Of a stretch of 64,000 bases of DNA, positions 1,550 to 21,147 are shown one piece after another. Under the pieces are notes generated by a model that did no database searches, was not told the DNA's origin, and saw nothing but the letters and a program-made list of their open reading frames with translations. A program made the position numbers and the translations under genes. The DNA lies in assembly GCA_963733195.1 (NCBI GenBank), contig CAVTCR010000033.1, positions 1 to 64,000 of the forward strand, given 5' to 3'. Position 1 is the stretch's first letter. Each line of letters begins with the position of its first letter. This stretch comes from an uncultured delta proteobacterium (GTDB taxonomy: Bacteria; Desulfobacterota; Binatia; Bin18).

Positions 1550-1662
1550 AGAGCAACTAATTTTTTGTCGAAGCATTCCTTACACAGCTCAGCATTTTGC
1601 CAACGTAAGAATGAGATTTCATAGCTTTTCCCACACCCTTTGCAGGTGACTGGAGATTTCAT
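1550..1662 (-). pseudogene. First cassette ORF of integron A, 5' part (CxxC...CxxC small protein), interrupted by IS66
   Basis: GGAG RBS + ATG at 1662 about 20 bp after the reconstructed GTTAGGC site; MKSPVTCKGCGKSYEISFLRWQNAELCKECFDKKLVA runs into the IS66 IR. Confidence 0.55.
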
Positions 1663-1710
1663 TTGTTTACTCCCACCATAGCCTGCTATGAAAATGCCCC
1701 GGCAATCGTC

Positions 1711-2957
1711 CTACGCGGCTTGTCCGACTTCTTCAAGTGTGACCTTCACTCCGAGTGCTTCCAGCTGCTTCACTAAGCGTTGCCGTTGCTACTCGACCTG
1801 GTGCTGCGTCACGTACGCACTGCCTAAGTCTGTGTAGCCCACGCGTCGACGGAGCAGATGATAGACCACCCGTAACATACCATGCGCCACCGCGACAAGC
1901 GCTTTCTTCTTGCCCATCCGTTTCACCAGTCGATAATACTTGGCGGCCAGAAACGTCCCCTTCGCCCGCGTCGCGGCCCACGCCGCTTCAACCAGGGCGG
2001 TGCGCGATTACATGCGCTCCTTCTCGTCATATTTTTGCAACCGCTTGCGCTTGCCCGCCGACTCATGGTTGCCTGGACACAGTCCCGCCCAACTCGCCAG
2101 ATGTTCGGCGGAGGGAAACCGCGCCATATCGACCCCAATCTCAGAGACAATCGTGTGCGCGACGTGTTCGCCGATCCCCGGCATACTATCGAGCAACCCC
2201 ACGGCCTCCTGCACGAAAGGGTCGGGGCAGTGCTTAGCGACTTTCCTCCCCAATCCGGATCTCTACGCGTTGTATGGCAGCATGGATTCCCGCGACCCCG
2301 CGCGAGTAATTCGCCCAGCACCCAACGTTGGACTTGCGTCAACCGCCCGACTGACGCGTGGCGGAGGGCGTCCTTTTTGTTCTTCAGTTTCCCTTGGGCC
2401 AGCTCGGCCAACCTCCGCGCATCCTGCTCGCCTTCTGCTAACGCCTGCAGCATCAATCGCCCGCTCAGTCCCGACACGTCGCTGGCCACTTGCCCCAACT
2501 TGATGTTCCCACTCTCCAGGAGTTTCTGGAGCCGATTGGCGACGGCGGTGTGTTCACGCAGCAGTGTCTGCCGGTACCGCGTTAACTCGCGCAACTCCCG
2601 ACTCTCGCGCGGCGGAATAAAACTGGCCCGCAATAATCCATGCCGCAACAAATCCACCAACCACTCGCGCGCGCACGTCCGTTTTGCGCCCCGGCACTGC
2701 TTTGATATGTCGCGCGTTGACCAGGATCACTTCGAGTGTTCCCTCCAAATGTTGAACACCGGCTTCCAGTACAGCCCCGTACTTTCGATCGCGACATGCG
2801 TACAGCCCTCGCTGGTTAACCAATCGCCGAGGTGGAGCAACTCCTCCGTCATCGTCGCGAAGGTGCGAATCTCCTTTCGCCCTTTCTTGATCACACACGC
2901 CACGACTGTCTTGGCATGGACGTCTAGCCCACAACAGCATTCGTAGACGACTTCCAT
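1711..2957 (-). CDS. IS110 family transposase (multiple frameshifts)
   Basis: MEVVYECCCGLDVHAKTVVAC, AIESTGLYWKP, LLDSMPGIG..AHTIVSEIG.DMARFPSAEHLASWAGLCPGNHESAGK; C-terminus VTLEEVGQAA* at 1711. Confidence 0.92.
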
Positions 2958-3195
2958 CTTGGGCTCCTTTCGCCTTGGCGGGGAGAACCTCAGGCAAGAA
3001 AGAGTCTGCTATCCGTGCTGCCCCGTGACGGGCACAACAATGCGTGGTGCCTCAGGAGGCTCTCGGGTCCGGCTAACTTACGGGCTAGGTGGACGAAGGC
3101 TCTCGACCTCATCCGCACCAAAGACGGCGACTACTCTATCGCTCGCAGGCCTTCTTTTCATCCTGCGTGGTGTCGCCACGCAACATGTTTCGGCT
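2958..3195 (-). ncRNA. Putative IS110 bridge RNA region
   Basis: Non-coding region upstream of the transposase with hairpins and short matches to target (AGTTAG at 3073-3078, AGCCT at 3057-3061) and donor end (ATAGCAG at 3006-3012). Confidence 0.65.
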
Positions 3196-3200
3196 AACTA

Positions 3201-4805
3201 GAGCGAGTCGCAGAACTCAGAAAAGGATCAAGCTCGCCTTTTGCCTCTTGCTGGGTCCTTGTTTCCAACCCTCGCTTGCTCTCCGTCGCCCTAGACAACT
3301 GCGGTTGTCATCGTCCTGTCTTTCTCTACGATGTCTCTCATCAGATTGACCAAATTCATACAGACCATCGCACGCTGCCCGGCTGCTCGCGGGCTCTCGT
3401 TGCTGCGCTGTCTGCCCCCTCTGAATTCGTATTTGCTGCTCTTGAGGGTCCCGATGCTCCCCTCGGTCTGCCCGCGTTGGCTGCCAACCTCTTTCTGGTC
3501 TTCCTCGGCAACCGACCAGGGGGCTTTGCCGGCGGGCTGGATGCCGACCTTCTTGACCCCAGCCTTTTGCAGCTTCTCCACGGTCTGCGCGCAACTCCCG
3601 CCGCGGTCGTCGACTGCCATCTCCGGGCTGGCCTGCTCCCCAAACACCTCTCGATAATTCTGCAAGGCTGCGAGCGGCATCTTTCTCTCGTCGACACGCG
3701 CGTCCACGACTTTGCCAAAAATATACCCCCCGGGATCCGGTTGAGCAACCACTTCAGCCCGAACGCCACTTTCTTTCCTGCACTCTTCTTCACTATGGAC
3801 CGGGCTTGGGTGATCCCGGGGTGCAAGATCTTGTGGCGGGCGACTTTGCCAGTCTTCATCCACTGCTCGATCTGCGGGATTAACACCCCACTGACTTCTC
3901 CCATCTGCTGCAACTTTGCTACCGCTGCGTGGGCCACCTTGGTGCTTGCCACCCCAACTTGTTTGATCACCTGTCGGCTGCTGGTGATGAGTTGCTTGCT
4001 GTGACTGAGGATCTTCTTCAGCGCCTGATCTTTTGCGTGCTTGGTCTTGGCAAACAAATGGTAGTCTTTGACCCGGCCGAAAACCTCCTTGGCTTTCTCG
4101 ATGGCGGCTTGAGCGTGTTGGTAGCCGCGGTTTTTCAACTTCACGGCCGCTCGGTAAACCCGTTGGGCAATACCGCGCAGGATGCCGGCCTCATGCGGGT
4201 AGCCGATCTGTGGCTCCTGTACCGTGGTGTCGGCGGACAAGAGCTGGGGCTTGCCAAACCCTAACCGCACGGCTTCGGTCACTACCAGATGATTGATCTG
4301 TTGCCAGCCCGCCGTGCCTAAGGCAGCTTGTGCGCGGGCGATATTCGAATGATCGCGCAGATGCGGCAGCGGATTTCTGTAAGGTCCAAAAACACGCGCG
4401 CCACCACGTTCTCTGCGCTGTATTCTTCCATCTGCCGCGCCGAGAGGGCTTTGACCGCCATCAAGACCAACAAGGGGACATACAAAGCGACCCGCCAGGG
4501 CAGGCCGGGTATGCCGTCCACGTTTTTTCCTACCGCCGCCGTGACGGACCATCACCGCTTGAAGGGCCGGCCAATCGAGCGCGCGCTTGAGCTGCAGCAA
4601 CGGATGGGTGTCCGCGACAAAAAGCGAGACCAAATGAGGGGGCAACTCTGGCACGGCCCTGGGTTCGGGCGTACAATGCGCAGCGGTGCTCATGGTATGC
4701 TCCTGGAGTATGGATTTGATTGATCACATCCAAGTTCATACCTGTAGCACAGGAGCTATTCAACCTCAGAGCTGGTTGTATAGCTCCTCATTCTGCGACT
4801 CGCTC
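3201..4805 (-). mobile_element. IS5-like insertion sequence
   Basis: Perfect 15-bp terminal IR GAGCGAGTCGCAGAA (3201-3215 / 4791-4805); 6-bp TSD TAACTA (3195-3200, 4806-4811). Confidence 0.88.
3291..4693 (-). CDS. DDE transposase, IS5-like (frameshifted)
   Basis: HPLLQLKRALDW, RDHSNIAR, SADTTVQE, KKVAFGLKW, AVDDRG, RGQTEGSIGTLK motifs across frames. Confidence 0.8.
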
Positions 4806-4945
4806 TAACTAGTGATGGGCCGCGTATAGAGGATCTACCAATAGATGGAACTCACTATTAGTAGAAACTTCTTTGTATTTGTATAGAGGCCCGGCTTTAT
4901 ACATATAGAATGGGTCTCCCATCTACAGCTTTATACATATAGAAA
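4805..4945 (-). other. Putative attI site of integron A with direct-repeat array
   Basis: CTAACTAGTG core identical to 19764-19773; GCTTTATACATATAGAA x2 (4894-4910, 4928-4944); GTATAGAGG x2 (4824, 4881). Confidence 0.65.
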
Positions 4946-4975
4946 CTCGCTCCCTGTGACATCCATCGACCATCG

Positions 4976-5335
4976 CTAGCAACCGGCCGCTGCCACAATC
5001 CGTTTGCGCAACCCCAAGGCAATCACACGGTCATAGCGTAGTTTCCACACGCCGCGCCGGGCGTCCCACTGTCCACCAGCACTTTTCACCTGCTGGCGGA
5101 TCGTTGCCTCTGGAACTGCGACTCGCACCGCGACAATCTGGTCCGGGGCAGGTTGCGGAGTGGGAGGTGTCCATTGCCCTTCGGCAACCACTAATTCCAC
5201 TGTCTTGTACCGTTTCTGATTTTGGGCGTCGTACCGGTACCGTACACAGACCAAACGATTGCCGTACTCTGCTCGCAACCCCTTAGCACCGTCTTGGTCT
5301 GGATGCAATGTTAATCGGATGCGGGTGTTGTGCAT
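4976..5335 (-). CDS. Small basic hypothetical protein (YGxRLVCVRYRYD motif) directly downstream of intI
   Basis: 119-aa ORF with RBS (AAGGG), 36 bp after the intI stop, co-oriented. Confidence 0.75.
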   Translation of the reverse strand: MHNTRIRLTLHPDQDGAKGLRAEYGNRLVCVRYRYDAQNQKRYKTVELVVAEGQWTPPTPQPAPDQIVAVRVAVPEATIRQQVKSAGGQWDARRGVWKLRYDRVIALGLRKRIVAAAGC

Positions 5336-5559
5336 GGGTCTTTTCCCTTCTTGGGGCGTAGAAACGCGCGCTTATAGGCCATCGGCGGGACTCTGGACAC
5401 CTTGGCCGCCGCGATTGAGGACATGGGTGTAGATCATCGTCGTGCTGACATCGCGATGGCCAAGCAATTCTTGAATCGTGCGAATGTCATACCCGGCTTC
5501 CAATAAATGCGTGGCAAAGGAATGGCGGTACTCATCAGCATACTGCCCATGAAGGGGCG

Positions 5560-5937
5560 ACGGTCACCATTCATTATCATCACCATCCGTTTTATGGAGA
5601 ACACGGCACGTTCATTCGCCGGTTACGACGGTACACGAGCGATCAAGTCGTCATTGAGCTCCGTGATGAAGTGCAGGTAGCACTCCCAAGCTGGATGTTA
5701 GATCCGGTGGCATGCCAACACCTCAGTGATGAACCCCAGCCTCGTCTGGCCATTGCCGCCTTACTGGAATTGCGTCACCTCCTCGATAGTCAGCCCTTGC
5801 TTACAAGTCGCGTGGTCGCTAGCCGAAAGCGAACCGCTCAACAGACAGGAGAGGACCATGCGCGATCGCAGTCATCTACAAGTGCACCAACGCCCCTTAC
5901 CATTCAGCCGTCCAGACCTATGGGAGCAGATACCTGA
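5560..5937 (+). CDS. Small LSR-associated protein (DUF5372/Y4bD-like), start uncertain
   Basis: [13 protein letters not shown]...[12 protein letters not shown]...LLELRHLLD, typical of ORFs upstream of this LSR group. Confidence 0.55.
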
Positions 5938-6037
5938 GACCATTCGCCAACAGTGTCAGGATCTGTGCGTACAATTGTTACAAACTGTTCTTGAGAGTGA
6001 AGAACTCTCTCGGAGGGAATATGAACGAGAAGATTAA
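5858..6037 (+). CDS. Small hypothetical protein overlapping LSR start
   Basis: RBS GAGG + ATG 5858; MRDRSHLQ...[16 protein letters not shown]. Confidence 0.45.
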   Translation: MRDRSHLQVHQRPLPFSRPDLWEQIPETIRQQCQDLCVQLLQTVLESEELSRREYERED

Positions 6038-8104
6038 GCCTGAACATCTCACCCGCGCAGCCTATGTCTATGTCCGGCAATCCAGTGTGCACCAAGTCCG
6101 TCATCATCGTGAGAGTTTGCTGCGGCAGTATGCCTTAGCGGAACGTGCCACAGCAGCTGGGCTTTGCGAAAGTGGTGGTGATCGACGACGATTTAGGGGT
6201 GACGGGAGCCGGGACCCAAGAGCGGCACGGGTTTGGCCGCCTGTTGACGGCGGTGTGTCAAAAAGCAGCGGGGGCAGTCGTCGCGTTAGAGGCGTCTCGC
6301 CTCGCGCGCAACAACCGCGACTGGTATCATCTGATCGATCTGTGTGCGATGACCGAGACCTTGTTGATTGATGATGACGGGATTTACGATCCGCGACTGA
6401 TCAACGATCGGCTCGTGTTAGGCGTGAAAGGCACAATGAGTGAGTTTGAATTAAGTCTGTTGCGGCAACGGGCCCGCGAAGCCTTCGAACAGAAAGTGAG
6501 ACGTGGCTGTGTCCTCTGGCAAGTGCCTATCGGGTTCGTGCGCACGGACGAGGATCAGATTGAGAAAGTGCCAGACCGCCAAGTGCAGCAGGCCGTGCAG
6601 TTGGTGTTCCAGAAGTTTCGGGAGTTAGGGAGTGCCCGCCAGACCATGTTGTGGTTACGCGATGCCCAGATTCGTGTCCCGGCGATTGTGCCCAGCACAG
6701 GCGGTGAGGAGATCGTGTGGCAGTTGCCTGGTGAGAGTCGTATTCACCAAATGTTACGCAATCCCATGTATGCCGGTGCCCTCGCCTATGGCCGCACGAA
6801 GTTCCAGCGCACCCTGATTGACGGACGGCTGCAGCAGACCACCCGCAGCCGCAAAGCGCGGGAGGACTGGTCGGTCTTGCTGCGGGACCATCACGACGGC
6901 TACATCTCCTGGGAGGAGTATTGTAAGAATCAACAAATCCTGGAGGCGAATCTGGCAAGACGAGAGGCGAAAAATACGGGGGCGGCGAAAAGTGGGCCAG
7001 CGTTGCTCTCCGGATTGTTACGCTGCGGGCGGTGTGGCCGGATGCTGTTTGTCGCGTATGGTGGGAATGGAGGCCGCGTCCCACGCTATGGGTGTCACGG
7101 GGGACGCGTGGATCGCGGTTCGGCGGCGTGTTTATCGGTCGGGTAGCCTGCGCGTCGACCAAGCCGTCGTGGAGCAAGTCTTAGCGGCGATTCAACCAGC
7201 TGGGATTCATGCCGCCTTGGCGGCAGAGGCGGAAGTCGGCCGTGAGCAAGAGCAGATTCGCCAGACCCTGACCTTAGCGGTGGAGCGCGCGCGCTACGAA
7301 GCGCAGCGGGCGCAGCGACAGTTTGATGCCGTCGATCCCGACAATCGACTCGTCGCGAGTGAATTGGAAGCGCGGTGGAACCAGGCCTTGGTGAAGGTGG
7401 CGGAAGTCGAGACGCGGTTACACGCTCTCGCTCCTCCTCAACCGCTGAGTCCGACCCAAAAAGAACAGTTATTAATGTTGGGCAATGATCTCTCGTTATT
7501 GTGGCAGCATCCGGCCGCACCGGTGGAACTCAAAAAACGGATTCTGCGCACCGTGCTCGAAGAAATCGTGATCGACCGCGTTGAAGAGCCCGCGCAGGAA
7601 CTCTTGCACCTCCATTGGAAAGGTGGGGTGCACACGGAATTACGCGTGGCACGCAATGGCACCGGCCATCATCGTCGCGTTGCTGACGACAAAGCCATCG
7701 AACTGATCGAAGAGTTGTCCAAAATCTGTACGGCCCAGATGATTGCTCAAGTGCTCAATCGCTTGGGCTATCGAACAGGACAGGGACAGACGTGGCGTGT
7801 CCATCATATATATAATGTCCGGTATGAACGGCGACTGCCCAGTTATCAGAAAAAAGGTGAGTGGTTGACGTTGCAAGAGACCGCCACCGAACTCCAGGTC
7901 AGTGGTACCGTCATTAAACGTCTGCTGAAGGAGGGGATTTTACCTGCCCGCCAAGTCGTTCCGGGTGCGCCCTGGGTCATCGAACGCAAGAATCTCCAGT
8001 TACCCGTGGTCCAAGCGCAGATTCAGGCCGTGCATGCGGGCCGCAAACCGCCACAAATTACCGACAGACAAGCCGAACTTCCGCTACAATACAGCATTCT
8101 CTGA
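6021..8104 (+). CDS. Large serine recombinase (resolvase + recombinase + Zn-ribbon), frameshifted ~6150 and ~7140
   Basis: AYVYVRQSS, IDDDLG, EASRLARN, LLSGLLRCGRCG, VDPDNRLVASELEARWN. Confidence 0.92.
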
Positions 8105-9090
8105 AAGGAGTAGTACTATGTTGAAACGGTCCGCAAGATGTGACGGATTGGCGGGCTTGGTGAGTCCAACTCTTCCGAGCGGCTTCCTGCAGGCGCGTTG
8201 CGGCACGGACTCATGCAGATGATGCCGACGCTGATTCCCGGAGCGTGGATCAACGCTGAGATTGCGAGGCCGGAAACACCCACTGCCAGCCCCATTCTGT
8301 GTCGGCGTTGCGATACTTCCGGTCCAACGCATCTGGGAATGACACGCGACCGAATCCCACTGAAGATCACGTTGGTGAAGCTCGCGTACCCGTACGAGAT
8401 GTGCGGTCAGCGCTGGCTTTGACAACGAGCCGGGAGCATGGTGATGCGATCTTTGTGGCCTTTGCCTTCACGTACAACAATCTGATTGGCGGTGAAGTCA
8501 ACATCTTTGACGCGTAGTCGCAGGCATTCCATCAGACGCAGTCCGGCGCCGTACAGCAGATTGGCGATGAGCCAGAGCACGCCGTCCACCGCACCGAGCA
8601 AGCTTTGCACTTCCTGCTCTGGTGAGCACGGTCGGAAGACGTTGTGGGCGTTTGGCGCGGACGATGATTGTCTAGCCAGCCAGGATTGAGATCAAGCACG
8701 TGCCGGTACAAGAAGACGAGCGCATTGAGCGCCTGGTTTTGCGTGGCCGCGCTGACGTGCTTGTCCATGGCAAGATGTGGTGAGAAACTGCTCGATTTCT
8801 TCCTCGCCCATCTCACGCGGGTGGCGTTTGTTGATGGAAGAAGATAAAGCGTTTGATCCAGTGGATGTAGTGTCTTCCGTTCGCAGACTGTAATGCCGCA
8901 TGCGAATCGCCTCGCGGACTTGGTCGAGTAGTTTCGGTTTCTGCGCTGCGGAAAGAAATCTGGTCTGTGGGCCAGGGAAGGTGGAGGCTGGGGATACATC
9001 CGCGCGGGAACGCGCTGGATGTGACCCCGAGGGTATTCCCGTTGAAGGGCTGGTGCCAGTGATGTCATGAGTGCCCCCTTTTTTGTTGAT

Positions 9091-9123
9091 GGCGAATATA
9101 AAGCGAAAATAAAATTTCGTCAA
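9091..9123 (-). promoter_or_regulatory. intI-A promoter with TTCGC-N6-TTCGC repeat
   Basis: TTGACG-N17-TATATT; 17-bp block identical to 21115-21131. Confidence 0.7.
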
Positions 9124-9265
9124 GAGAAGTTCTGTCGCAGGTGATTGTTTCCCCTCACTTAATGCCTATCCGAATAACGGCTGCCACAGTGTTATGCGAA
9201 ACATCTCTTCTTCACGTTCAAAGCGGGATTCTTCGCTGCGCTGCTCAGGAACACATGGATACGAT

Positions 9266-9286
9266 GGCGGGCGCAGCCCGCCCTAC
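9266..9286 (-). repeat. GTAG-type REP-like palindrome
   Basis: GTAG-GGCGGGC-TGC-GCCCGCC; similar units at 22993 and 52424. Confidence 0.6.
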
Positions 9287-9350
9287 GGTGCTCAGCTTCT
9301 TGCCTCAGGGCGCGGTTACCTCACTGAGGACAACTTGCTATGAATACCGC

Positions 9351-10386
9351 GTGTTACTCGCTGACTTCGATTACGATCTTCCGCCGGAGCTAATTGCCCA
9401 GGAACCAGTCCGAGAGCGGTCACTTTCGCGTCTGCTCGCGCTTGATCGCGTTTCTCGGCGAATGTCTCACTATCAGTTTTCTGACATTGTTCATCTCCTT
9501 CCTGAAGATTGTGTATTGGTGCTGAACGATACGAAAGTTTTTCCTGCTCGGCTGAGGGGTCATAAAGAGAGTGGTGGCCGTATAGAACTCCTCCTGTTAC
9601 GCCGCTTGCCTGGCGAAGAGGAAATCTGGGAGGTGATGTGCAAAGGTGCTCAGGGGATGAGCGTGGGCATGCAAATCTCTCTTGCTCCCGAACTATCGGC
9701 CACCTGGGTTTCAACGCCGCGTGATGGACGTGGGATGATTCGCTTCTCCGCGCGAGGGGAGTTCCTCGCCATACTTGAACGACTCGGCGAAATCCCGTTG
9801 CCGCCGTACATCAAACGTCCTCCAGGGAATCGACCAGAAGATACCGAACGCTATCAGACGGTGTATGCACGACACATGGGGGCTGTTGCTGCACCAACGG
9901 CAGGTCTGCATTTCACGCCGGAATTATTAACTGCGATACGACAGCGTGGCGTGGAGATTGCCTTCCTCACATTGCATGTCGGTGCCGGGACGTTTCAACC
10001 GATGCGGACGGAACAGGTTGAAGCCCACGTCATGGAGGAAGAGGAGTACGAGATTAATGAAGATGTCGCGCGACGTATAAACATGGCCAAGCAGTGCCGG
10101 TCGCAAAATTATTGCCGTGGGTACGACGAGCACGAGAGCCTTAGAGTCGGCGTGGAACGACGGGTACGTGCGATCTGGACGGCGTCGTTCATCACTCTTC
10201 ATGTATCCAGGATTCACGTTCCAGGTGATCGATGGACTGATTACCAATTTTCATTTGCCACGCTCAACGCTCTTGATGCTTGTATCAGCCTTTGCTGGCC
10301 GAGACCTCATCCTTGAGGCGTATCAGGAAGCCATCGCTCAGCGGTATCGATTTTATAGCTACGGTGATGCGATGCTGATTCTCTAA
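9351..10386 (+). CDS. queA: S-adenosylmethionine:tRNA ribosyltransferase-isomerase (frameshift ~10095)
   Basis: [60 protein letters not shown]. Confidence 0.97.
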
Positions 10387-10418
10387 TGGCGGTTGCAAGG
10401 TAGCGGAAAAACGACTAA

Positions 10419-11955
<1,537 letters not shown>

Positions 11956-11959
<4 letters not shown>

Positions 11960-13533
11960 TGCAAAAGGGGATTCTCTACCGGGCGCTGTTGATTCTCGCA
12001 CTGATTGTGTGGGCAATAGTGTATCTCGTGCCCTCGACGATGGAGAAGGTACCGGATTGGTGGTCATCGATATTGCCATCGCGCAAGATTCGTTTGGGGT
12101 TGGACCTTCGTGGTGGGACGCATCTCTTATTGAACATCGATATGGAGAAGGCCGTTGCCAATGCTTTGGATCAGAACGCCGAAGAACTCCGCCGGGCGAT
12201 GCGTGAGGCGAATATCTCTGGCGTAGAAGTTCAACGAGCAGAAAAATCGCTGCGGATTCGCGCGTCGACACAAGAGGCGAAGAATAGCGTTGAAAAGCTT
12301 CTTTCCGAACAGTTTCCTATTCTCGTAACCGAGGGAGCACCGACACCAGCAGAAGGAGAGATTGCCCTTGTCTTCGACAGACGTGAACTCCAACGCCTGC
12401 ATGAATATGCGCTTGACCAATCCCTCGAAACGATTCGTAACCGTATCGATCAGTTTGGTGTCTCCGAGCCCACGGTTCAACGACAAGGCAGTCAAGACAT
12501 TCTCGTTCAGCTCCCCGGCATCCAAGATACGGCTCGCGCCAAAGATCTTTTGAAGAAAGTCGCGGCCCTTGAGTTCAAGTTAGTAGCAACTGATGGGAAA
12601 GGAGGTGCGGAAGGGACGGTGAATCTCACTGGTCAAGAACGAGAGCCTCTTAGTGGGCAGATGCGCAAGATCGATTATACGCTAGAAAGAAAGACCCTCA
12701 TGACCGGAGATGTGGTATCGGACGCGCGCGTGCGCCCGAGTTCAGATCTTGAAGGGCCGTACGTTGAACTTGTCTTGAATGATAGTGGGGCACGGTTGTT
12801 TGAAAAAATTACCAGTGACAACGTTGGACGCCAACTCGCCATCATTCTTGATAACACGGTCTATTCGGCTCCGGTGATCCGCGAGAAAATCGGTGGCGGA
12901 CGAGCCTCGATTACTGGTAACTTCGATATCAAAGAAGCGCGGGATTTGGCTATTGTTTTGCGTGCTGGCGCGCTTCCTGCCCCAGTGACGATTGCAGAGG
13001 AACGTACGGTTGGTCCTTCGCTTGGAAAAGATTCTATTCGCCAAGGGATATTATCTTTTATGGTCGGAGGCGCCCTAATCATAGTGTTTATGATCCTGTA
13101 CTACAAATTTGCTGGCGTACTTGCTGATTTGGCTGTGATCCTTAACGTTTTGCTGTTGATGGCGGCGTTAGCTGCGTTTGAAGCAACGCTGACCTTACCT
13201 GGCATCGCTGGTATTGTTCTGACCGTCGGTATGGCGGTAGATGCCAACGTGCTGATTAACGAACGCATGCGTGAAGAGTTACGATTAGGAAAAAATGCCC
13301 GTGCAGCAATAGAGGCAGGCTATGAGCGAGCATTGCCGGCGATTCTCGACTCGAACATTACCACCTTTCTTTCCGGCCTCATCCTATTTCAGTTTGGCTC
13401 GGGACCGGTGAAAGGTTTTGCTGTCACATTGTGTATCGGTATCATCACGACCGTGTTTACCGCTGTGTTCTGTACGCGTGTGGTCTATGACTACCTGCTA
13501 GCGAATCGGCGGTTAACAACGCTTAGTGTGTAG
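11956..13533 (+). CDS. secD: Protein translocase subunit SecD
   Basis: LGLDLRGG, IRNRIDQFGVSEP, VGPSLG, GMAVDANVLINER. Confidence 0.98.
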
Positions 13534-13637
13534 AGTGGAACGATGAAGCAGAATTCAGAATGATGAACAGTAAAAAACGAGAATGGGTTTTCATTCACGT
13601 TCATTATTTCGCGTTCTGCATTTGGTGGTAGGGATGT

Positions 13638-14541
13638 ATGGAACTAATCAAGCCAAATACGAATTTCGATTTTGTCCACTATTTAAAACCCGCGATTGCG
13701 TTCTCGCTTGCGCTGATTCTTCTTGGCCTTGCCTCCTTATGGTATCACGGCGGACCTAATTACGGTGTCGATTTTGTTGGTGGCACCGTAGTGCATGTCA
13801 AATTTACTCAGCCCACAACCATTGCGGATATTCGTCAAGCGCTGGCAACCACGAATATCGAAGGGGGGACCGTCCAGGACTTCGGCCAGGGCGGCAATGA
13901 ATTCCTCATTCGCCTGCCGGTTGCCGAGGCTGACAACCGAAGATATTTCCACAAAAGTGCAACAAGGGTTAGTGAGTAAGTTTGGCGAACAGGCGTTTGA
14001 AGTCCGCCGTATTGAGACGGTTGGCCCCAAAGTGGGAAAAGATCTCCAACGAAAGGCGATCCTTGCCGTAGCAGTTTCTGCCCTCGTCATGGGAATCTAT
14101 GTTGCTGTTCGTTTTGAGCCGCGTTTTGGCATAGGGGCAGCGGTGGCACTCTTCCACGATGTCCTGATCACGGTTGGCGCGCTCTCGTTAATGAACATGG
14201 AATTTGATCTCACGGTTATTGCTGCGCTCCTCACGGTCATTGGTTTCTCGGTCAACGATACAGTGATCGTATGCGATCGCATTCGTGAGAATATGCGGAA
14301 AATGCGACGGGAAGGACTGCTGAACATTATTAATAAGAGTATCAATGAGACATTAAGCCGGACGATTATCACCAACGGAACCGCTATTCTGGTGGTCATT
14401 GTGCTATATTTTTTTGGCGGTGAGGTGATTCACAGCTTTGCTTTTGCATTGTTGGTTGGGTTTATTGTCGGAACTTATTCCTCCATCTATGTTGCCAGTC
14501 CGATTGTGTTGTTATGGGAGAAAGCAGGGCAACGAGCGTGA
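13638..14541 (+). CDS. secF: Protein translocase subunit SecF (frameshift ~13935)
   Basis: GVDFVGG, VGPKVG, IGFSVNDTVIVCDRIRE, GTYSSIYVA. Confidence 0.96.
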
Positions 14542-16301
14542 GTACGCTCACGCGGTCTCCTGCGCGACGTTGGGTGATGCGTTCTCCTGACCCTACGCAC
14601 GTTGCAGTACTTTGCTCACAGACGCAAACAGGGTCAGCCTCTATTTCTCCGTTCTTGGCGCGATTACTGGTGAATCGCGGCATCGATACCCAAGAGAAAG
14701 CCACGACATTTCTTGCGCCGTCCCTACGTAGCGGCCTCCGTTCTCCGCTGCTTTTTCCTGATATGGCCCGAGCGACTGAACGCATCTTACAGGCGCGCGC
14801 CCGCGGTGAGCAGGTCTATATTTACGGTGACTATGACGTTGACGGTGTCACTGGTAGTTCGCAGCTTTTATTGTTCCTGCGGGAAATCGGTTTTGATCCT
14901 GGACTGTACATTCCCCACCGCACGCGTGAAGGATATGGCCTCAATGCGCAGGCCATGCGGACGATCGCCGAGCGCGGTGCTAAAGTGCTCATCACCGCAG
15001 ATTGTGGCGCAACGGCCCACACGGAAATCGCTTTAGCCCAAAGCTTGGGTGTTGATGTCATCATCTGTGACCACCATCATGTTCCCGAACAGCGTCCGCC
15101 CGCGTACGCCGTTCTTAACCCCATGGAGAAAGACTGTGCGTTCTCGTTTACCGGTCTTTCTGGTGCTGGAGTGGTGTTCTACCTGCTGATGGGGTTGCGG
15201 ATGCGCCTGCGAGAACAAGGGATGGATCCGGTGCCCGATTTGCGACGCTATCTTGATCTCGTGACGTTAGGGACTGTCGCTGACCTAGTCCCGCTGGTGG
15301 AAGAGAATCGTGTCCTGGTGACACACGGACTGAAGGAAATCGATCGTGGGCAACGTGTTGGCATTCGTGTACTCAAAGAAGTCAGCGGACAAGCAGAGGT
15401 CTCAAGCAGTTACATCGGATTTCGTCTCGGGCCGCGGTTGAATGCTGGAGGAAGATTAGCTGAAGCGCAGAAAGCGGTTGAATTGTTAACGACTGAGGAT
15501 GAAGAGCGTGCTCGTACTCTTGCGATCGATCTGGATGGGGAGAACCGTGCTCGCCAGGGGATTGAGGAAAAGATTCTCAATCAAGCCGTCGAGAAAGTGG
15601 AAGCATGGTCTGACTTACCCGACCGTCGCAGTATCGTCCTCGCGTCTGACGAATGGCACCCGGGTGTTATCGGTATCGTGGCGTCACGGCTGGTTGAACG
15701 ATTTGCGCGTCCGACTTTTCTGATTGCTATCGATGGTGCGAAGGGTAAAGGTTCCGGACGGAGCCCAAAGGTCTTCCATCTATATGAAGGGTTGAAAGCG
15801 TGTGCAGAGGTGTTGGATGGCTATGGTGGTCATCGTCAGGCTGCCGGGCTTTCGATCCAAGCTGACCGCATTTCCGTTTTTGCCGAGAAATTCGAAGCTG
15901 CTGCACGTGCACGCCTATCCGCTGAAGATTTAGTATCGGAAATCGACGTGGATGACGAAGTCGACCTTGCGATGATGACGGCCCGAACCATGGATGAAGT
16001 CCGCTTGCTTGAGCCGTATGGCCAAGGAAATCCTGAACCAATCTTTCTTGCCCGTGAAGCTGAAGTCGTTTCTACGCGCGTGGTTGGTGCGAAACCCCTG
16101 TTAGGGAAGCCTGGACACCTTAAGCTTGTGCTCCGTTCCGGGAGAGGGGGACGGCCCCTGGACGCTATTGGTTTTGGTATGGGTGACTGGCCACTAAAAC
16201 CGCGAGCCCGGATTAATATGCTTTATACTCCGGAGATCAATGTGTGGAACGGAAACGCGAGTTTACAGCTCCGTTTACGTGATTTAAATTTGAGTAAGTA
16301 G
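14538..16301 (+). CDS. recJ: Single-stranded DNA-specific exonuclease RecJ
   Basis: YGDYDVDG, TADCG, CDHH, GTVADLVPL, PRLNAGGR, GGHRQAAG. Confidence 0.97.
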   Translation: MSTLTRSPARRWVMRSPDPTHVAVLCSQTQTGSASISPFLARLLVNRGIDTQEKATTFLAPSLRSGLRSPLLFPDMARATERILQARARGEQVYIYGDYDVDGVTGSSQLLLFLREIGFDPGLYIPHRTREGYGLNAQAMRTIAERGAKVLITADCGATAHTEIALAQSLGVDVIICDHHHVPEQRPPAYAVLNPMEKDCAFSFTGLSGAGVVFYLLMGLRMRLREQGMDPVPDLRRYLDLVTLGTVADLVPLVEENRVLVTHGLKEIDRGQRVGIRVLKEVSGQAEVSSSYIGFRLGPRLNAGGRLAEAQKAVELLTTEDEERARTLAIDLDGENRARQGIEEKILNQAVEKVEAWSDLPDRRSIVLASDEWHPGVIGIVASRLVERFARPTFLIAIDGAKGKGSGRSPKVFHLYEGLKACAEVLDGYGGHRQAAGLSIQADRISVFAEKFEAAARARLSAEDLVSEIDVDDEVDLAMMTARTMDEVRLLEPYGQGNPEPIFLAREAEVVSTRVVGAKPLLGKPGHLKLVLRSGRGGRPLDAIGFGMGDWPLKPRARINMLYTPEINVWNGNASLQLRLRDLNLSK

Positions 16302-16318
16302 TTGAAATTCCAAATATA

Positions 16319-16555
16319 TTGACCGTTTTGTGGACGTATGGCATACTCGCCGGAAAATTTTTCGATGAACCGAGCTTTGTTGTGGTCGAGAAAGACAACT
16401 CCCTACTCCATAGCCGGCAAGCAACCGAACTGCTCGACCTCAGTCCTGATACGGTCAATGAACTCGCTAGTAAGAATACATTACCTGCCGTTAAACGCGG
16501 ACGACAATGGCGTTTTCGTCGCCGCGATATCTCGTCCCTTAAGAGGCAAATGTAG
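16319..16555 (+). CDS. Excisionase-like helix-turn-helix protein (HTH_17); true start probably ~16382
   Basis: LLHSRQATELLDLSPDTVNELASKNTLPAVKRGRQWRF pattern. Confidence 0.7.
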   Translation: MTVLWTYGILAGKFFDEPSFVVVEKDNSLLHSRQATELLDLSPDTVNELASKNTLPAVKRGRQWRFRRRDISSLKRQM

Positions 16556-16590
16556 GAACGGGCGGCAGCGTAAGCCGTCGGGGAGGGTAC

Positions 16591-17280
16591 GTGATTTCCG
16601 CTAGAAGAGAGAGAGAACTAAGGAATCCTCACGAAAGTAAGATCTATTCTGACTTTTCACACCTGTACGAGAAGATCTTTTCACCGTTTTTTGAGAAACG
16701 GATTCATGGGGTAATTAAGAGCTTGCAGATCCCGCCCGGAGCCAAAGTGCTTGAAGTTGGTATCGGGACCGGCCTGTCGATGGCAGCATATCCTGCTCAC
16801 TGCGAAGTCACTGGTGTTGATCTCGCTGCCGACATGCTTGAAAAAGCCCAACAGAAAGCCGATGAGAATGGGTGGCGCCATTTCCGTTTGCTGGAGATGG
16901 ATGCGCTCAATCTGACCTTTCTAGATAATTCATTTGACTATGTCCTGTCGTTTCATGTTATAAGTGTGGTTCCAGATCCGGCGCGCATGATGCACGAGAT
17001 TCACCGTGTCTGTAAACCGGGCGGTTCGGTAGTCATCATCAATCACTTCCGCTCGACCAAGCCGGTAATTGGACCACTAGTTGGGGCTCTGACGCCGATT
17101 ACTCGCCATCTCGGATGGGATGCCTCGCTTCGGCTTTCCGAAGCTTTTGCTGGGGTTCCGGTACACATTGAGAAGTGTTTTAAGACCTCACCGTTCTCGC
17201 TGTTTACCGTGGTGGTAGCACAGAACCAGAAACCCACGACGAACGGAGCAACTCACTATCATCAGCATCATCAGCTGTAA
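16591..17280 (+). CDS. Class I SAM methyltransferase (PmtA-like phospholipid N-methyltransferase)
   Basis: VLEVGIGTG, ISVVPDP, RVCKPGG..VIINHF. Confidence 0.8.
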   Translation: MISARRERELRNPHESKIYSDFSHLYEKIFSPFFEKRIHGVIKSLQIPPGAKVLEVGIGTGLSMAAYPAHCEVTGVDLAADMLEKAQQKADENGWRHFRLLEMDALNLTFLDNSFDYVLSFHVISVVPDPARMMHEIHRVCKPGGSVVIINHFRSTKPVIGPLVGALTPITRHLGWDASLRLSEAFAGVPVHIEKCFKTSPFSLFTVVVAQNQKPTTNGATHYHQHHQL

Positions 17281-17300
17281 GGACGGGGCAACCCGTCCTT
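17279..17300. terminator. Hairpin between convergent genes
   Basis: AAGGACGGG-GCAA-CCCGTCCTT. Confidence 0.6.
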
Positions 17301-17312
17301 ACTTGCCGAGAG

Positions 17313-17648
17313 CTACGCGAGAGGTACTACCGCTGTAATTGCCGGTCCACTTCCGACCACTCGGGTCGTATGCCCCGGACCGGTGAGGTCTTCAGCGAGA
17401 GTGGCATCGCCAGGGTTCAGCCGTTTTACTGTTCCATCTTTGAACCCGAGCTCAAGTTGTCCGGTGAACACGATCACATATTGTCGCCGCGGGGCTGGAT
17501 GCCAGTCCATGAACGTTCCGGTAGGAAGCTCGCGAAACTGGATATGGACGGTTGAACGTGCTTCGCCCAGAATTGGATGAGCGGCAATGGACTGTTCTTC
17601 AAGGTGAGACTGCCCATCACTACCTGTATACATACGAAAGATGGCCAT
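17313..17648 (-). CDS. Cupin-like protein
   Basis: YTGSDGQSH, WHPAPRRQY, AEDLTGPGH; paralog of 23057-23449. Confidence 0.8.
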   Translation of the reverse strand: MAIFRMYTGSDGQSHLEEQSIAAHPILGEARSTVHIQFRELPTGTFMDWHPAPRRQYVIVFTGQLELGFKDGTVKRLNPGDATLAEDLTGPGHTTRVVGSGPAITAVVPLA

Positions 17649-17690
17649 AGTGGTCCTCCTTTACTCGTGTCAGTTTGTTAGTGCCTATGG

Positions 17691-17715
17691 GTCAGGTGCA
17701 ATGGCTCAGTTAGAC
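17691..17715 (-). other. Truncated attC (left half only)
   Basis: GTCTAAC-TGAGCCATTGCACCTGAC just after the cassette gene stop; GTCTAAC complements the GTTAGAC at the cassette start (18744-18750). Confidence 0.55.
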
Positions 17716-17747
17716 ATGGCCAGTTGGGGCAGCTGCATCCGCAGTCG

Positions 17748-18170
17748 CTATGACGGATAATAGAACCCATCAGTACGAATTGATTCCAGGGCTTTTGTCA
17801 GCGTAAGCTCCTGCTCCACTTCCACCCATTTCCCGGTGTGCCGCATGAACGAGAGATTGAACCGGTTCCCTCCAACGTACTCGAGGCGAGTGAACGGAGC
17901 CTCGAAGAACGGTGAGATCGCCGTCGGGCCTGGGCACGCGTACTTTGCCACGAGATAGAAATAGTTCCGATGCCACTTCGTGAACAAGTCAACAATATAG
18001 TTGAAGTGATGGCCCTCCAGCGATTCCTTGACATATTGTGGCTTCCACTCGTCAATGAGCCTTTGACCCTGTTGAGATACTTCGGTCTTTACTGCTTCAG
18101 GAACTTTTGCCTTTGGGGCGGAGCGCGGCGCATAGACCCACATTTTGGGCGGGAGTTTTCGTTTTGCCAT
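17748..18170 (-). CDS. Cassette-borne hypothetical protein (DUF3024-like)
   Basis: FTRLEY..FNLSFMRHTGKW motif; lies between att sites. Confidence 0.7.
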   Translation of the reverse strand: MAKRKLPPKMWVYAPRSAPKAKVPEAVKTEVSQQGQRLIDEWKPQYVKESLEGHHFNYIVDLFTKWHRNYFYLVAKYACPGPTAISPFFEAPFTRLEYVGGNRFNLSFMRHTGKWVEVEQELTLTKALESIRTDGFYYPS

Positions 18171-18403
18171 ACTGACTCCAACGCACTGACCTACCAAGTC
18201 ACTATGAGTATCAGCACTCCGCTGCCAACGCACAAGACCACGTCTATCACCTCTCGCTCACCCTGTGGCCCTCCGTGTGCTTGCGCGTTCACTCAGAACC
18301 GCCACTGGGCCACGCTCATGTGTGAGGCGGCGTTCTCGTCCCAACAAGCCCGTAGATTGTGGGGACCGTGCTGACCATAAACTCAACTCTTGGCGAAAGC
18401 CTC

Positions 18404-18667
18404 TCACAGCTTCCCCTTGTACTTTGAGGACCACCCAAACAATGCTCTCAGCTTCTGCCCAGGATTGAATTTAAATGCCGTGCTCTCTCGCCTCCGATCC
18501 AGATAGAAGCCGCCAAACCCTGCAAATGAAATCCCTTTGCCAGACTTGAACACCTGATACATTGCTTCCAGTGTCGCATCAAGCCAGGCCTCCGCTGTTG
18601 CTTCATCTGTCCCCATCTTTTTAGCGAGGCGCCGAACAAACTCTTCCTTCTTGATGTGTTCGGCCAT
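18404..18667 (-). CDS. HU-like DNA-binding protein (cassette-borne, short arm)
   Basis: KEEFVRRLA...GISFAGFGGF...FKFNPGQKLR. Confidence 0.8.
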   Translation of the reverse strand: MAEHIKKEEFVRRLAKKMGTDEATAEAWLDATLEAMYQVFKSGKGISFAGFGGFYLDRRRESTAFKFNPGQKLRALFGWSSKYKGKL

Positions 18668-18743
18668 GTCAATTTCGCTCCTCTGTGACGCCGCATAAAT
18701 AACAAGGGCTTGCTCACCACCCAAGAGCACGTTGCAAACCAGC

Positions 18744-18835
18744 GTCTAACGCGCCGGCTGAGCGCCCGGCGGCCACTGTCGTTTGCTCAGAGTACGTCGC
18801 CTCACCGCCGGTGCGCCTCCAGCCGGTTGTTAGCG
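18744..18835 (-). other. attC recombination site
   Basis: Minus strand: CGCTAAC-AA-CCGGCTGGAG...CTCAGCCGG-CGC-GTTAGAC; paired arms with extrahelical G, 92 bp, 11 bp after the antitoxin stop. Confidence 0.9.
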
Positions 18836-18846
18836 CCCTCTGCTCC

Positions 18847-19146
18847 TTACGCTGCCTTTGCCGTGAGCTTCACCCCAAGCGCCCGCGCGACTTTGAGTAC
18901 GGTGTCGAAGCGAGGTTTTGCTCCAGGGGCAAGCGCTTTGTACAAACTCTCCCGCCCGAGCCCCGTTTCTTTGGCAATTTGAGACATCCCGCGTGCTCGC
19001 GCGATGTCTCCGAGCGCGAGGAGCAAGAGGTCTGGCTCATTCGCCTCAAGCACGGCCGTCATGTACTCGGCGATGGCTGCCTCGTCAGTGAGGTAGCGCG
19101 CGGCGTCAAACGGGAGAAGCTTACGAGGGGTCTTGGCTTTCTTCAT
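18847..19146 (-). CDS. Addiction module antitoxin (HigA/HI1420-like HTH)
   Basis: FDAARYL..ALGDIARARGMSQIAKETGLGRESLYKAL..PRFDTV. Confidence 0.9.
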   Translation of the reverse strand: MKKAKTPRKLLPFDAARYLTDEAAIAEYMTAVLEANEPDLLLLALGDIARARGMSQIAKETGLGRESLYKALAPGAKPRFDTVLKVARALGVKLTAKAA

Positions 19147-19445
19147 AGGTCGTCTCCGATCTCGCTAGAGATACCCTTGGCGCGCTTAATGTCTCGCCTC
19201 TGTGTGGATTTGTCACCGCCGCAAAGAAGGACAATCACCACACTCCGGCGGCGGGTAAAGTACAGACGATACCCCGGCCCGACGTCGACGCGCATCTCGG
19301 ATACGTCACCGCCCACTGGAGCCCAGTCTCCGAGATTGCCGGCTTCAGCAAGGCGAAGGCGCGCAGCAATTCGAACCTGTGCCCGTTTGTCTCGAAGCCC
19401 GTCAAGCCAGGTCTGGAACTCTTCTGTCTGACGGACGATAAACAT
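19143..19445 (-). CDS. RelE/ParE-family toxin (HigB/HI1419-like)
   Basis: FQTWLDGLRD..GNLGD..VGGDVSEMRVDVGPGYRLYF..LLCGGDKSTQ. Confidence 0.92.
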   Translation of the reverse strand: MFIVRQTEEFQTWLDGLRDKRAQVRIAARLRLAEAGNLGDWAPVGGDVSEMRVDVGPGYRLYFTRRRSVVIVLLCGGDKSTQRRDIKRAKGISSEIGDDL

Positions 19446-19449
19446 CGAC

Positions 19450-19479
19450 CATACGTATCCGATCGGATACGTATGTCAA
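19450..19479 (-). promoter_or_regulatory. TA promoter/operator, perfect 26-bp palindrome
   Basis: CATACGTATCCGATCGGATACGTATG (19450-19475) overlapping TTGACA. Confidence 0.8.
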
Positions 19480-19761
19480 GCGGGATGCCCATCCTGGGGC
19501 ACTAGCACTTCTCCTCTCTGGTTCCACATAAAAGTCCAATTGCAGAAAACCCACGGCGACAGCGAATACCCCACGTTCTCATTCCGTGGGAGTAGTTAGA
19601 GAGGCAATTAAATCGTACCGCTCTTGGATCGTTACCCCCGGTGGATACACCATCCAATGCTGGGCCGAGCGCGTCCACACATGCACTCGAAGCGCTCTCC
19701 GAGGCGCTGGACATCGAAAGATTCCGTTGCACTCTTCTGTCTTCCTTTCTTGAGTTTGTCG

Positions 19762-19985
19762 GTCTAACTAGTGGGTTTACTGCCACCTAACCGGCAGTAT
19801 ATCTCGATATTGAGATTCCCCGCCATCCCAAGAAAATCTCTCGCAGTATCCGCTCGGTCCACGCATTTTGTCAAGCCTTTTCTCAGCAGCAAACACTGCC
19901 AGTTTGGCGGTATATCCAGATACCAGCCCGCGGTATATCCCACGTATATCTCACTGGCCGTATATCCCGATATCAGCCCGCAGTC
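19762..19985 (-). other. Putative attI site of integron B with GTATATC repeat array and Pc-like promoter
   Basis: CACTAGTTAGAC (GTTRRRY); GTATATC at 19797, 19910, 19933, 19944, 19960; TTGACA (19869-19874)-N18-GATACT facing the cassettes. Confidence 0.7.
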
Positions 19986-20005
19986 GGTCGCCATCCTTCT
20001 CCGCG

Positions 20006-21094
20006 CTACAGCCGGTCGGCCGGACTCTTTACCCCTCGCCCGCCACGATTCAGCACGTGGGTATACACCATTGTCGTGTTGACATCCTTGTGCCCTAGTA
20101 GTTCCTGCACAGTGCGAATGTCATACCCATCTTCCAGTAAGTGCGTTGCAAACGAATGGCGAAACGTGTGACATCCCGCATGCTTGGCTACTCCAGATTT
20201 TTGACATGCCGTTTTGACCGCTTTCTGGAGCACCGATTCATGCAGATGGTGGCGGCGCAGCTTGCCTGAGCACGGATCGATGGCGAGCTTGGAGGCCGGA
20301 AACACAAACTGCCACCCCCACTCCTGCGGAGCGTTCGGATATTTCTTCTCTAATGCATTTGGTAAGGACGCCCCACCTTGTCCGTGTTCCAGGTCTCGTT
20401 GATAGCGTATTTTCACTCGTTCAAGATGTTGGCGTAGTGGTTCCACCACAGAACTCGGTAACATGGTTACGCGATCCTTGTCACCTTTCCCGGCGCGCAC
20501 GGTAATCTGATTGTGGCCAAAGTCGATCTCTTGTACGCGTAAGCGAAGACATTCCATCAGCCGGAGCCCAGCACCGTAGAGGAGTGTGACCATCACCCAC
20601 TCAACGCCTTCAAGACCATCAACAATGGCACGCACTTCTTGCCGAGTAAGGACCACCGGTAGACGGTGTGGCCTTTTGGCCCGCACCACGCCGTTGATGT
20701 AGCCAACCGGTTGCTCCAACACCGCGCGATAGAGAAACAACAAGGCATTTAAAGCTTGATTTTGTGTCGAGGCGCTTACCTGTGATTCTGTAGCCAGAGC
20801 GGAGAGAAATTGCCCGATCTCGATCTCTCCCATCTCTCGTGGATGACGTTTTCCATGAAAGAAAATGAAGCGTTTGATCCAGTGCATGTACGCTTTTTCA
20901 GTCCGCAGACTATAGTGCCGCGTGCGCATCGCCCCGCGGACTTGGTCAAGGAGCTTGGGCTTGGGCCCTTCTGACGAAGGCGGAGTCAAGTTACCAAACC
21001 GAACTGGGGACGGGGAATAGGGTGATGGGGATGGATTGCGTTGTGCGTGAGACTGCCGCTCGCCTCGAGGCACGACGGACAAGTAGGTAGGCAT
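20006..21094 (-). CDS. intI: Integron integrase B (intact)
   Basis: R-K-HxxR-H-Y catalytic set plus integron patch [20 protein letters not shown]...RRHHLHES. Confidence 0.97.
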
Positions 21095-21114
21095 AATCCC
21101 CTCCTTTCTAGGAG

Positions 21115-21147
21115 GGCGAATATAAAGCGAAGAAAAAATTGCGTCAA
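21115..21147 (-). promoter_or_regulatory. intI-B promoter with TTCGC-N6-TTCGC repeat
   Basis: TTGACG-N17-TATATT, same block as 9091-9107. Confidence 0.7.

Follow-up and report, generated by a model that had tools for sequence, protein, structure and literature searches.

A reverse-type integron and a decayed second integron platform on either side of a housekeeping operon in an uncultured Binatia-like bacterium

Two integron platforms of an uncultured delta proteobacterium (assembly GCA_963733195.1, a 6.9 Mb draft of 87 contigs, 93% complete) are described here from a 64,000-nucleotide stretch of contig CAVTCR010000033.1 (C33:1-64000), which we refer to in its entirety as the window. We are confident that these are two independent chromosomal integrons of the reverse type flanking an ordinary housekeeping operon, the second (platform 2) functional-looking, the first (platform 1) a wreck. 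A first-pass annotation of this DNA had reported two integron integrase genes (intI) on the minus strand, one split (5372-9068) and one intact (20006-21094), each followed by the same core and by cassette-like genes, and had interpreted them as a lineage-specific twin system with co-regulated integrases whose directly repeated att cores bracket essential genes. Both integrase genes were recovered, as was the shared core, by exact copies of CACTAGTTAG at 4805-4814 and 19764-19773; the twin-system interpretation is not supported. The closest named homologues of the Tgt protein of the window are labelled Candidatus Binatia or 'Deltaproteobacteria bacterium' metagenome-assembled genomes (MAGs), and a literature search found no paper combining 'Binatia' and 'integron'.

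Platform 2, a functional-looking reverse integron

Read on the minus strand from 21147, platform 2 comprises its integrase promoter (Pint), intI2, attI2 and cassettes 1, 2 and 3 (ORF, open reading frame; R2, the attC model described below):

21119-21147, minus: Pint of intI2, predicted (TTGACG-17-TATATT, consensus match)
20006-21094, minus: intI2, intact integron integrase gene, 362 aa (TIGR02249, IntI4 alignment)
19764-20005, minus: attI2, predicted (core, repeats and Pc-like promoter)
19874-19845, minus: Pc-like promoter in attI2 (TTGACA-18-GATACT, a 10/12 consensus match only)
about 19446-19480, minus: palindromic operator and promoter in the leader of cassette 1, as read from the sequence
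19143-19445, minus: cassette 1 toxin, HI1419-type RelE/ParE (family match)
18847-19146, minus: cassette 1 antitoxin, HI1420-type (family match)
18744-18835, minus: cassette 1 attC, intact, R'' CTAAC and R' GTTAGAC (R2)
18404-18730, minus: cassette 2 ORF, HU/IHF-like DNA-binding protein (Bac_DNA_binding, E 5e-9)
18249-18328, minus: cassette 2 attC, decayed (R2, 24.8 bits, E 6e-4)
17748-18233, minus: cassette 3 ORF, DUF3024 (Pfam), within 17663-21170

The product of intI2 scores 477 bits on TIGR02249, against a cut-off of 265, and among 27 matches to this model in its genome it is the sole one above that cut-off. Its residues 49-362 align with the solved Vibrio IntI4 (2a3v; E 4e-100), and the alignment spans both the integron-specific segment (residues 236-290) and the catalytic C-terminal motifs; the frame is open over its full length and retains every position that is invariant in 29 IntI sequences. 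The attI2 region, of about 240 nt, has its core, CACTAGTTAG/AC (read as CACTAG/TTAGAC), at 19764-19773; GTTAGAC lies 233 nt past the stop codon of intI2, preceded by repeats, and at the sequence level this agrees with a GTTRRRY crossover core beside intI. Four copies of GCGGTATATCC lie within 19794-19967, and repeats of this type are also found 3' of the closest related intI (locus L086).

Sites of the attC type were sought in two steps, a loose structural scan of related genomes, which returned imperfect palindromes about 98 nt long that form one family, and an nhmmer profile of these palindromes that returned about 65 sites genome-wide. A hand-made scan with strict RYYYAAC/GTTRRRY cores had given zero sites, and the cores were then loosened. 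RNAalifold recovered the inner stem alone, and a three-helix structure was instead set by hand on 30 well-aligned sites of the genome itself. In this structure 86.8% of cells are paired, against 31-42% after sliding the partners; none of 500 shuffles reached the observed value on four of five measures, and 4 of 500 did so on the fifth (pairs changed on both sides). Two models were built, R1 from sites of the genome itself only, and R2 from 39 sites on other contigs and in relatives, with the window's own site left out.

A covariance search for attC had been suggested in the first-pass annotation, and with R2, run over the full 64 kb with filters off, it gives exactly two sites at E < 0.01, both on the intI strand and downstream of intI2. 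One of them is the site already proposed at 18744-18835, which on the minus strand reaches 36.9 bits (E 4e-7), against 10.4 bits on the plus strand. The other, at 18249-18328, has internal deletions and has lost its R'' and R' cores, and a model made from other contigs only still detects it (nhmmer, E 2.8e-5). Of the features of a complete integron, platform 2 has an IntI-type recombinase with the extra segment and at least one attC nearby, along with a putative attI and a putative Pc; it also has what defines a reverse one, cassettes that follow intI at its 3' end and attC oriented as intI is. The promoter-like site before the toxin-antitoxin pair (19446-19480) is overlapped by ATACGTATCCGATCGGATACGTAT, a perfect palindrome of 24 nt that is likely to be an autoregulation operator of cassette 1.

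We infer the working of this platform, including recombination activity, promoter use and action in trans, from its sequence. Transcription would start at Pint and proceed through intI2 and attI2, with its Pc-like promoter and the core G/TTAGAC, towards three cassettes on the same strand, the first with an intact attC and the later ones with attC sites that appear to be decaying. As the single intact integrase, IntI2 would be the only enzyme left that is able to move cassettes, acting in trans on other arrays.

Reverse and classical layouts in the genome and its relatives

Genome-wide, R2 gave 68 matches at E <= 0.01, one site being counted on both strands, and hence about 67 attC, which are spread over about 30 contigs. 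Besides those in the window, the genome holds at least five further intI remnants, and the IntI2-like remnants on contigs C1, C32, C41, C62 and C77 are each followed by attC on their own strand. An integrase above the cut-off is present in 17 of 41 related genomes, many of which have several. With R1, 16 loci with integrases at 59-77% identity to IntI2 yielded 15 attC in six loci, all downstream on the intI strand; the remaining ten yielded none, and nine of these have at most 1.1 kb downstream before the contig ends. Four loci at 51-52% identity yielded seven attC in three loci, all upstream and on the opposite strand. These opposite outcomes imply that R1 distinguishes reverse from classical layouts, and that one family carries both. 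In other phyla (35 of 51 loci, R2), 12 loci were classical, 2 reverse and 21 without attC. Cassettes upstream of intI in relatives would have spoken against the co-oriented architecture proposed in the first-pass annotation; all six informative loci, as well as the remnants in the genome itself, have them downstream, and the proposal stands. Contigs of the relatives tend to break 130-800 nt past the stop codon of a reverse-type intI (L086, L089, L091, L087, L092, L093, L095, L082), in the repeat-rich attI region or the first cassettes.

Reverse integrons, genomes with several integrases, pseudogenes of intI and arrays riddled with insertion sequences (IS) are all known already, and framed in these terms our finding is an ordinary one. 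Passages of earlier work (PMC3607928, PMC4889954, PMC3575428, PMC7691350) already describe the reverse type and speak of an 'inverted integrase group', and the same sources contain the statement that a quarter of integrons hold IS elements; PMC4889954 includes a figure of 20% of integron-bearing genomes with more than one IntI, and mentions intI pseudogenes beside attC clusters. The platform described here resembles Treponema denticola-type reverse integrons, as portrayed in parts of PMC3607928 and PMC7691350, in having cassettes that for the most part lack a known function and among which toxin-antitoxin pairs occur. It differs from them in its Binatia-like lineage, in its tiny array of three cassettes, and in belonging to a family that has both reverse and classical integrons. 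The genome also resembles the sedentary integrons with CALIN clusters (attC clusters without an integrase) of the IntegronFinder survey, as far as the relevant passages of PMC4889954 describe them, in having many such clusters, some with intI pseudogenes alongside, in the IS that lie within its integrons and in its multiple intI; it differs in the high density of sites (about 67 attC in a 6.9 Mb draft, spread over about 30 contigs), and in the five further contigs on which IntI2-like remnants have attC downstream on the same strand.

The chromosomal backbone and its empty sites

Between the two platforms lies the following chromosomal segment:

9141-17648, plus (cupin on minus): queA, tgt, yajC, secD, secF, recJ, methyltransferase and cupin genes (Pfam)

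A synteny comparison, another of the checks put forward in the first-pass annotation, turned out against its twin system. At 77% DNA identity, the backbone is collinear with a same-genus genome that has neither platform, from queA to recJ, the methyltransferase, the cupin and a thiamine pyrophosphate (TPP)-enzyme gene. This genome aligns with 9330-17662 and 21171-22981 but has just 72 nt where the window has 17663-21170, and its DNA upstream of queA corresponds to contig C26 of the genome studied here. In a second same-genus genome the cupin gene leads straight into the DNA beyond platform 2, which is absent. Given these empty sites, platform 2 (17663-21170) amounts to an indel of 3.5 kb. The locus has neither platform as a fixed feature; none of 20 related intI loci adjoins queA or the TPP gene, and the four syntenic queA-recJ loci of relatives are all free of attC.

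The cupin gene (17313-17648), taken for a cassette in the first-pass annotation, is chromosomal, because it occupies the same place in the two same-genus genomes without the integron. Three cupin paralogues are present, at 17313-17648 and 23057-23449 in the window and at C28:36382-36714. The last is 62% identical and adjoins two attC sites, and so a cupin cassette may exist elsewhere in the genome.

Several observations weigh against our reading of the window. Just one of the three cassettes of platform 2 retains an intact attC, so that the platform may be largely fossil despite its intact intI, and a supposed truncated third attC at about 17684-17722 was seen by eye only, with no model supporting it. 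The Pc-like promoter and Pint are consensus matches only, and four promoter-like sites compare with 2.1 expected in shuffles. The indel could be seen as a gain here or as a loss in the relative, whose empty site shows a TTGAC motif at its junction. A tyrosine recombinase gene on contig C28 departs from the pattern in having two attC on its strand but upstream of it; the product, 27% identical to IntI2, is probably not an IntI. Finally, the genome-wide R2 search scored 150 of 1835 first-look candidates.

A potential alternative is that intI2 is intact by chance or through the recency of its decay only, and that no cassette moves any more in this genome. Two of the three cassette ends have indeed decayed, and the many intI remnants and the IS in attI sites describe a general trend of decay. 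However, intI2 keeps its full-length frame, the positions invariant in 29 IntI and a whole-length match to IntI4, while the approximately 60 attC elsewhere in the genome score 40-99 bits with R2, and these sites are therefore well preserved. We consider this alternative unlikely, and continue to regard platform 2 as a functional-looking integron.

Platform 1, a decayed platform

Platform 1 (1-9125) has an integrase gene that is frameshifted and split by a dead serine-recombinase element, and an array cut by an IS66-like element at the contig end. Its features are:

9088-9125, minus: Pint of platform 1, predicted (89% identical to Pint of intI2)
8132-9068, minus: intI1 pseudogene, 5' piece (three reading frames)
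5528-8131, plus: inserted serine-recombinase element, 2.6 kb, single-copy in the genome (domains)
5372-5527, minus: intI1 pseudogene, 3' piece (IntI2 residues 311-362, 83% identical)
4976-5335, minus: ORF119, intact 119-aa gene between intI1 and attI1
4805-4975, minus: attI1 remnant (core, palindrome, repeats)
3202-4804, minus: IS5/ISNCY-like IS, DDE transposase at 3356-4693, inserted in the attI1 core
1681-3199, minus: IS110-family IS, frameshifted, abutting the GTTAG core of attI1
1037-1576, minus: ORF, 179 aa (no Pfam or NCBIfam match)
1-1425, no strand assigned: IS66-family repeat at the contig start (DDE_Tnp_IS66 match in ORF 2-592)

The 5' piece of intI1 has two TGA stops inside its match and high-scoring segment pairs in frames -3, -2 and -1; in all, intI1 has at least two frameshifts in addition to the 2.6 kb insertion, and it is a dead pseudogene. 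The insertion junctions could be placed to within a few bases by means of the uninterrupted intI remnants on C1 and C32. The element consists of little beyond a large serine recombinase gene (about 6022-8104), with Resolvase, Recombinase and Zn_ribbon_recom domains and two frameshifts. Its best NCBIfam match is XisF, the recombinase of the fdxN element of cyanobacteria, and, given a small, single-copy element that sits inside a gene with closely placed junctions, it might be supposed that intI1 carries a programmed interruption, excised on demand. Yet the XisF match reaches 96 bits against a cut-off of 375, the recombinase gene is itself frameshifted, and the further frameshifts of intI1 lie outside the insertion, so that excision would not restore the gene. 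The element does not qualify as a gene-interrupting element of the XisF type, and we regard a programmed interruption as highly improbable; intI1 is better understood as the wreck of an integrase gene.

The attI1 remnant contains the core CACTAGTTAG (4805-4814), a perfect palindrome of 14 bp (4833-4846) and a pair of direct repeats, each of 17 nt (4894-4910 and 4928-4944). The core is real, because the attI of the intact same-genus integron L096, which is homologous, matches attI1 over about 40 nt and terminates in CACTAGTTGG. Beyond it, the sole candidate cassette ORF of platform 1 (1037-1576) is truncated by the IS66-like repeat, only about 1426-1576 lying outside this repeat, and is possibly the remains of a first cassette. 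The IS66-family repeat has 83% identical copies on C72 and C32, and the second half of the element was sought at contig ends and not found. Neither nhmmer nor R2 detected attC in 1-5400. With no intact intI and no attC in that interval, platform 1 is a decayed platform and not a complete integron; of the cassette-like genes said to follow each core, those in the three cassettes of platform 2 remain, and platform 1 has IS, a truncated ORF and the IS66-like repeat in their place.

Insertion sequences at attI cores

The IS5/ISNCY-like element is 1.6 kb long with perfect 14-bp terminal inverted repeats (arms 3194-3215 and 4791-4812), and its transposase scores 59 bits on NCBIfam ISNCY and 45 bits on IS5, both far under the cut-offs. 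It sits between 8-bp direct repeats, CTAACTAG, at 3194-3201 (one mismatch to the 10-mer core) and 4805-4812, which are the two halves of a target duplication made by the IS. With the element removed, the site would read ...CCCATCACTAGTTAG, followed directly by the IS110-family element (3199..1681). The attI1 core was struck first by the IS110-family element and later by the IS5/ISNCY-like element, and with two nested IS in the core, the DNA that follows it is IS and not cassettes.

The IS110-family element, which has a long non-coding part upstream of its transposase gene (tnp), is found at two attI-type sites. The window copy is 87% identical to C24:50449-51960, where the element is intact (a 459-aa ORF with DEDD_Tnp_IS110 and Transposase_20), and both copies (the latter being L101:2449-3961) begin immediately after ...AGTTAG. 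The C24 copy heads an array of eight attC sites and follows a stretch that shares short motifs with attI1; as full homologues the two sites were rejected, since they align poorly and have only short motifs in common. This shared starting point, seen in just two copies, suggests that the element may reach the integron attI core by RNA-guided targeting; the known relatives that target attC belong to the IS1111 type. A possible parallel is the IS1111-attC group of insertion sequences cited in PMC11187229, with which the element shares a DEDD transposase and insertion at an integron recombination site, its position with respect to the GTTAG core being identical in two places of the genome. It differs in its target, an attI-type core and not attC, and in the longer non-coding region upstream of tnp, which, according to a passage of PMC11187229, is the IS110 and not the IS1111 layout, IS1111-type elements having it downstream of tnp. 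On these two grounds membership of that group was ruled out.

A further sequence, ACATAGCGGACGAGGCGTCCAC..., lies 3' of the attI core GTTGG at four loci, on C1 (from about 40150 downward, L106:6245-6814), on C41, and in L082 and L092. On C1 it runs on into a transposase gene of the IS91 family (Y2_Tnp, E 5e-43), which indicates that a rolling-circle IS also sits at attI cores. The attI core is thus an insertion hot spot, for IS110-type and IS5/ISNCY-like elements and, on other contigs, for IS91-type ones.

How closely the two platforms are related

The hypothesis that the platforms form one lineage-specific duplicated pair, kept together and with co-regulated integrases, draws on their shared strand, their distance of about 11 kb, a 38-nt stretch upstream of both intI genes that is 89% identical, and the common 10-mer. 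The exact CACTAGTTAG occurs twice in the window, on the minus strand in both cases. Allowing up to one mismatch there are four matches, a number reached by 8 of 100 shuffles; by count alone the 10-mer is not beyond chance, and its meaning comes from its context. It contains the GTTAG core of the attC R' boxes of the genome, was not conserved after related intI genes except in L096 and, loosely, L094, and attI1 and attI2 gave no alignment beyond it.

The coding DNA of intI1 and intI2 is 68% identical over 8940-8203 and 76% over 5527-5367, below the 89% of the promoter stretch, and across most shared stretches intI1 is nearer to the remnants on C32, C1 and C41 (74-78%) than to intI2. Platform 1 possesses ORF119 and palindrome-type attI repeats, and platform 2 neither. 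An IntI phylogeny had also been called for in the first-pass annotation, and a quick tree was built with SH-aLRT (Shimodaira-Hasegawa-like approximate likelihood ratio test) support only, from the window, all 20 related loci and 12 loci of other phyla (13 of 51 had been hand-picked, and one was dropped for in-frame stops). It places IntI2 with two relatives that lack ORF119 (support 95 and 92), and groups the 14 ORF119-linked integrases with a support of 84, under the 95 mark. From their sequences the two integrases are old paralogues or separate arrivals of different subtypes, and not a recent pair.

The shared promoter does not speak for co-regulation of a pair. A 17-nt motif round its -10 box (at most 3 changes) lies upstream of 11 of 16 IntI2-like genes and of none of 4 in the other group, and the promoter shared by intI1 and intI2 is hence a trait of the clade. 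Within this block (CTTGAC-N17-TATATTCGCC; 21112-21149 and 9088-9125), a direct repeat TTCGC-N6-TTCGC spans the -10 box as a possible operator; inspection by eye showed no LexA box of the E. coli type. Considering in addition that intI1 is dead, that the collinear same-genus genome has neither platform, that relatives lack one or both, and that further decayed platforms exist in the genome, we find a twin system extremely improbable. The directly repeated att cores round the essential genes are present as the first-pass annotation described them, and are a by-product of two independent platforms; IS have disrupted one of these repeats.

ORF119 and its palindrome array

Directly after intI, a homologue of ORF119 is found in 14 of the 16 IntI2-like related loci (e.g. 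L081:2492-2878); the exceptions are L088, without ORF119, and L086, which has just 150 nt of sequence there. The gene is absent after intI2 and after all four classical integrases. At E <= 1e-3 we found 193 homologues, which are unnamed or 'hypothetical' throughout and have no Pfam family assigned. ORF119 itself scores 15.4 bits on DUF5710, under the gathering score of 26.5, and sub-threshold matches to DUF5710 occur in 29 of 52 homologues (best E 8e-5). The predicted structure has a pLDDT (predicted local distance difference test score) of 90.6, and its best hits (Foldseek against the PDB, E 0.29; VIA-align, Z 3.9) are too weak for a fold assignment. A prediction of the IntI and ORF119 complex, for the cognate pair of L081 with alignments, returned 'no answer' with a score of 0.00, which is no evidence either way.

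After ORF119 genes come two to five palindromes of 14 bp, ATCTA-N4-TAGAT, at spacings of about 34, 26, 20 and 20 nt, with arrays of four or five in L081 (3081-3195), L096, L094, L095, L092 and L087; past them lies an L/R-box core such as GTCTAAT-ACAT-GTTAGG. The genome background of this palindrome is 0.01 per kb. The attI1 of the window retains one perfect copy (4833-4846), and a cluster of three further palindromes is present at C24:30845-30918.

A survey that took the gene as its starting point covered the best 80 (L121-L200) of at least 585 metagenome loci with ORF119. Among these 80, 73 loci have at least 200 nt of upstream sequence, and in 37 of them an IntI C-terminus directly precedes the gene on its strand; 70 loci have 250 nt or more downstream, and 51 of these show two or more palindromes in the 600 nt after the gene. 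All 21 distinct attC found around the gene are downstream on the same strand. Sixteen loci extend a full 3 kb upstream, and nine of them have no IntI match; in nine loci that are intI-less or ambiguous, ten long ORFs upstream of the gene comprise six ordinary genes (pyrroloquinoline quinone (PQQ) dehydrogenases, pyruvate phosphate dikinase (PPDK), a glycoside hydrolase family 3 (GH3) hydrolase, a coenzyme A (CoA)-transferase and a zinc-type alcohol dehydrogenase), one reverse transcriptase and three without a match. At least four of the nine loci with 3 kb upstream and no IntI match still have attC downstream on the strand of the module (L151, L174, L175, L179). Since it is kept at intI-less loci and in the window, the ORF119 module outlives intI.

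DR1 and DR2, the direct repeats of the class 1 attI1, bind IntI1. The attI of ORF119 platforms resembles this site in having short repeats upstream of a simple site with L and R boxes round the crossover, and differs from it in having four or five 14-bp palindromes at fixed spacing together with a dedicated small gene. A passage of PMC7691350 describes DR1 and DR2 for a reverse integron as well. Tentatively, and without regarding it as the likelier outcome, we suggest that this clade of reverse integrons has a previously undescribed module, in which ORF119 (two small domains, the second weakly DUF5710-like) may bind the palindromes, and in doing so either regulate cassette transcription or assist attI x attC recombination in an architectural or directionality role.

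Conclusions

The window offers a documented example of a reverse integron from a little-studied soil lineage, whose relatives are labelled Candidatus Binatia, in a genome with unusually many attC clusters. As classical and reverse integrons both occur in its family, a clean comparison of the two layouts is possible there. ORF119 and its palindromes are a more interesting lead than the twin system that had been claimed for this locus: if functional, they would provide some lineages with a dedicated co-factor for recombination or cassette expression, and ORF119 would be the first dedicated accessory protein of an integron platform.

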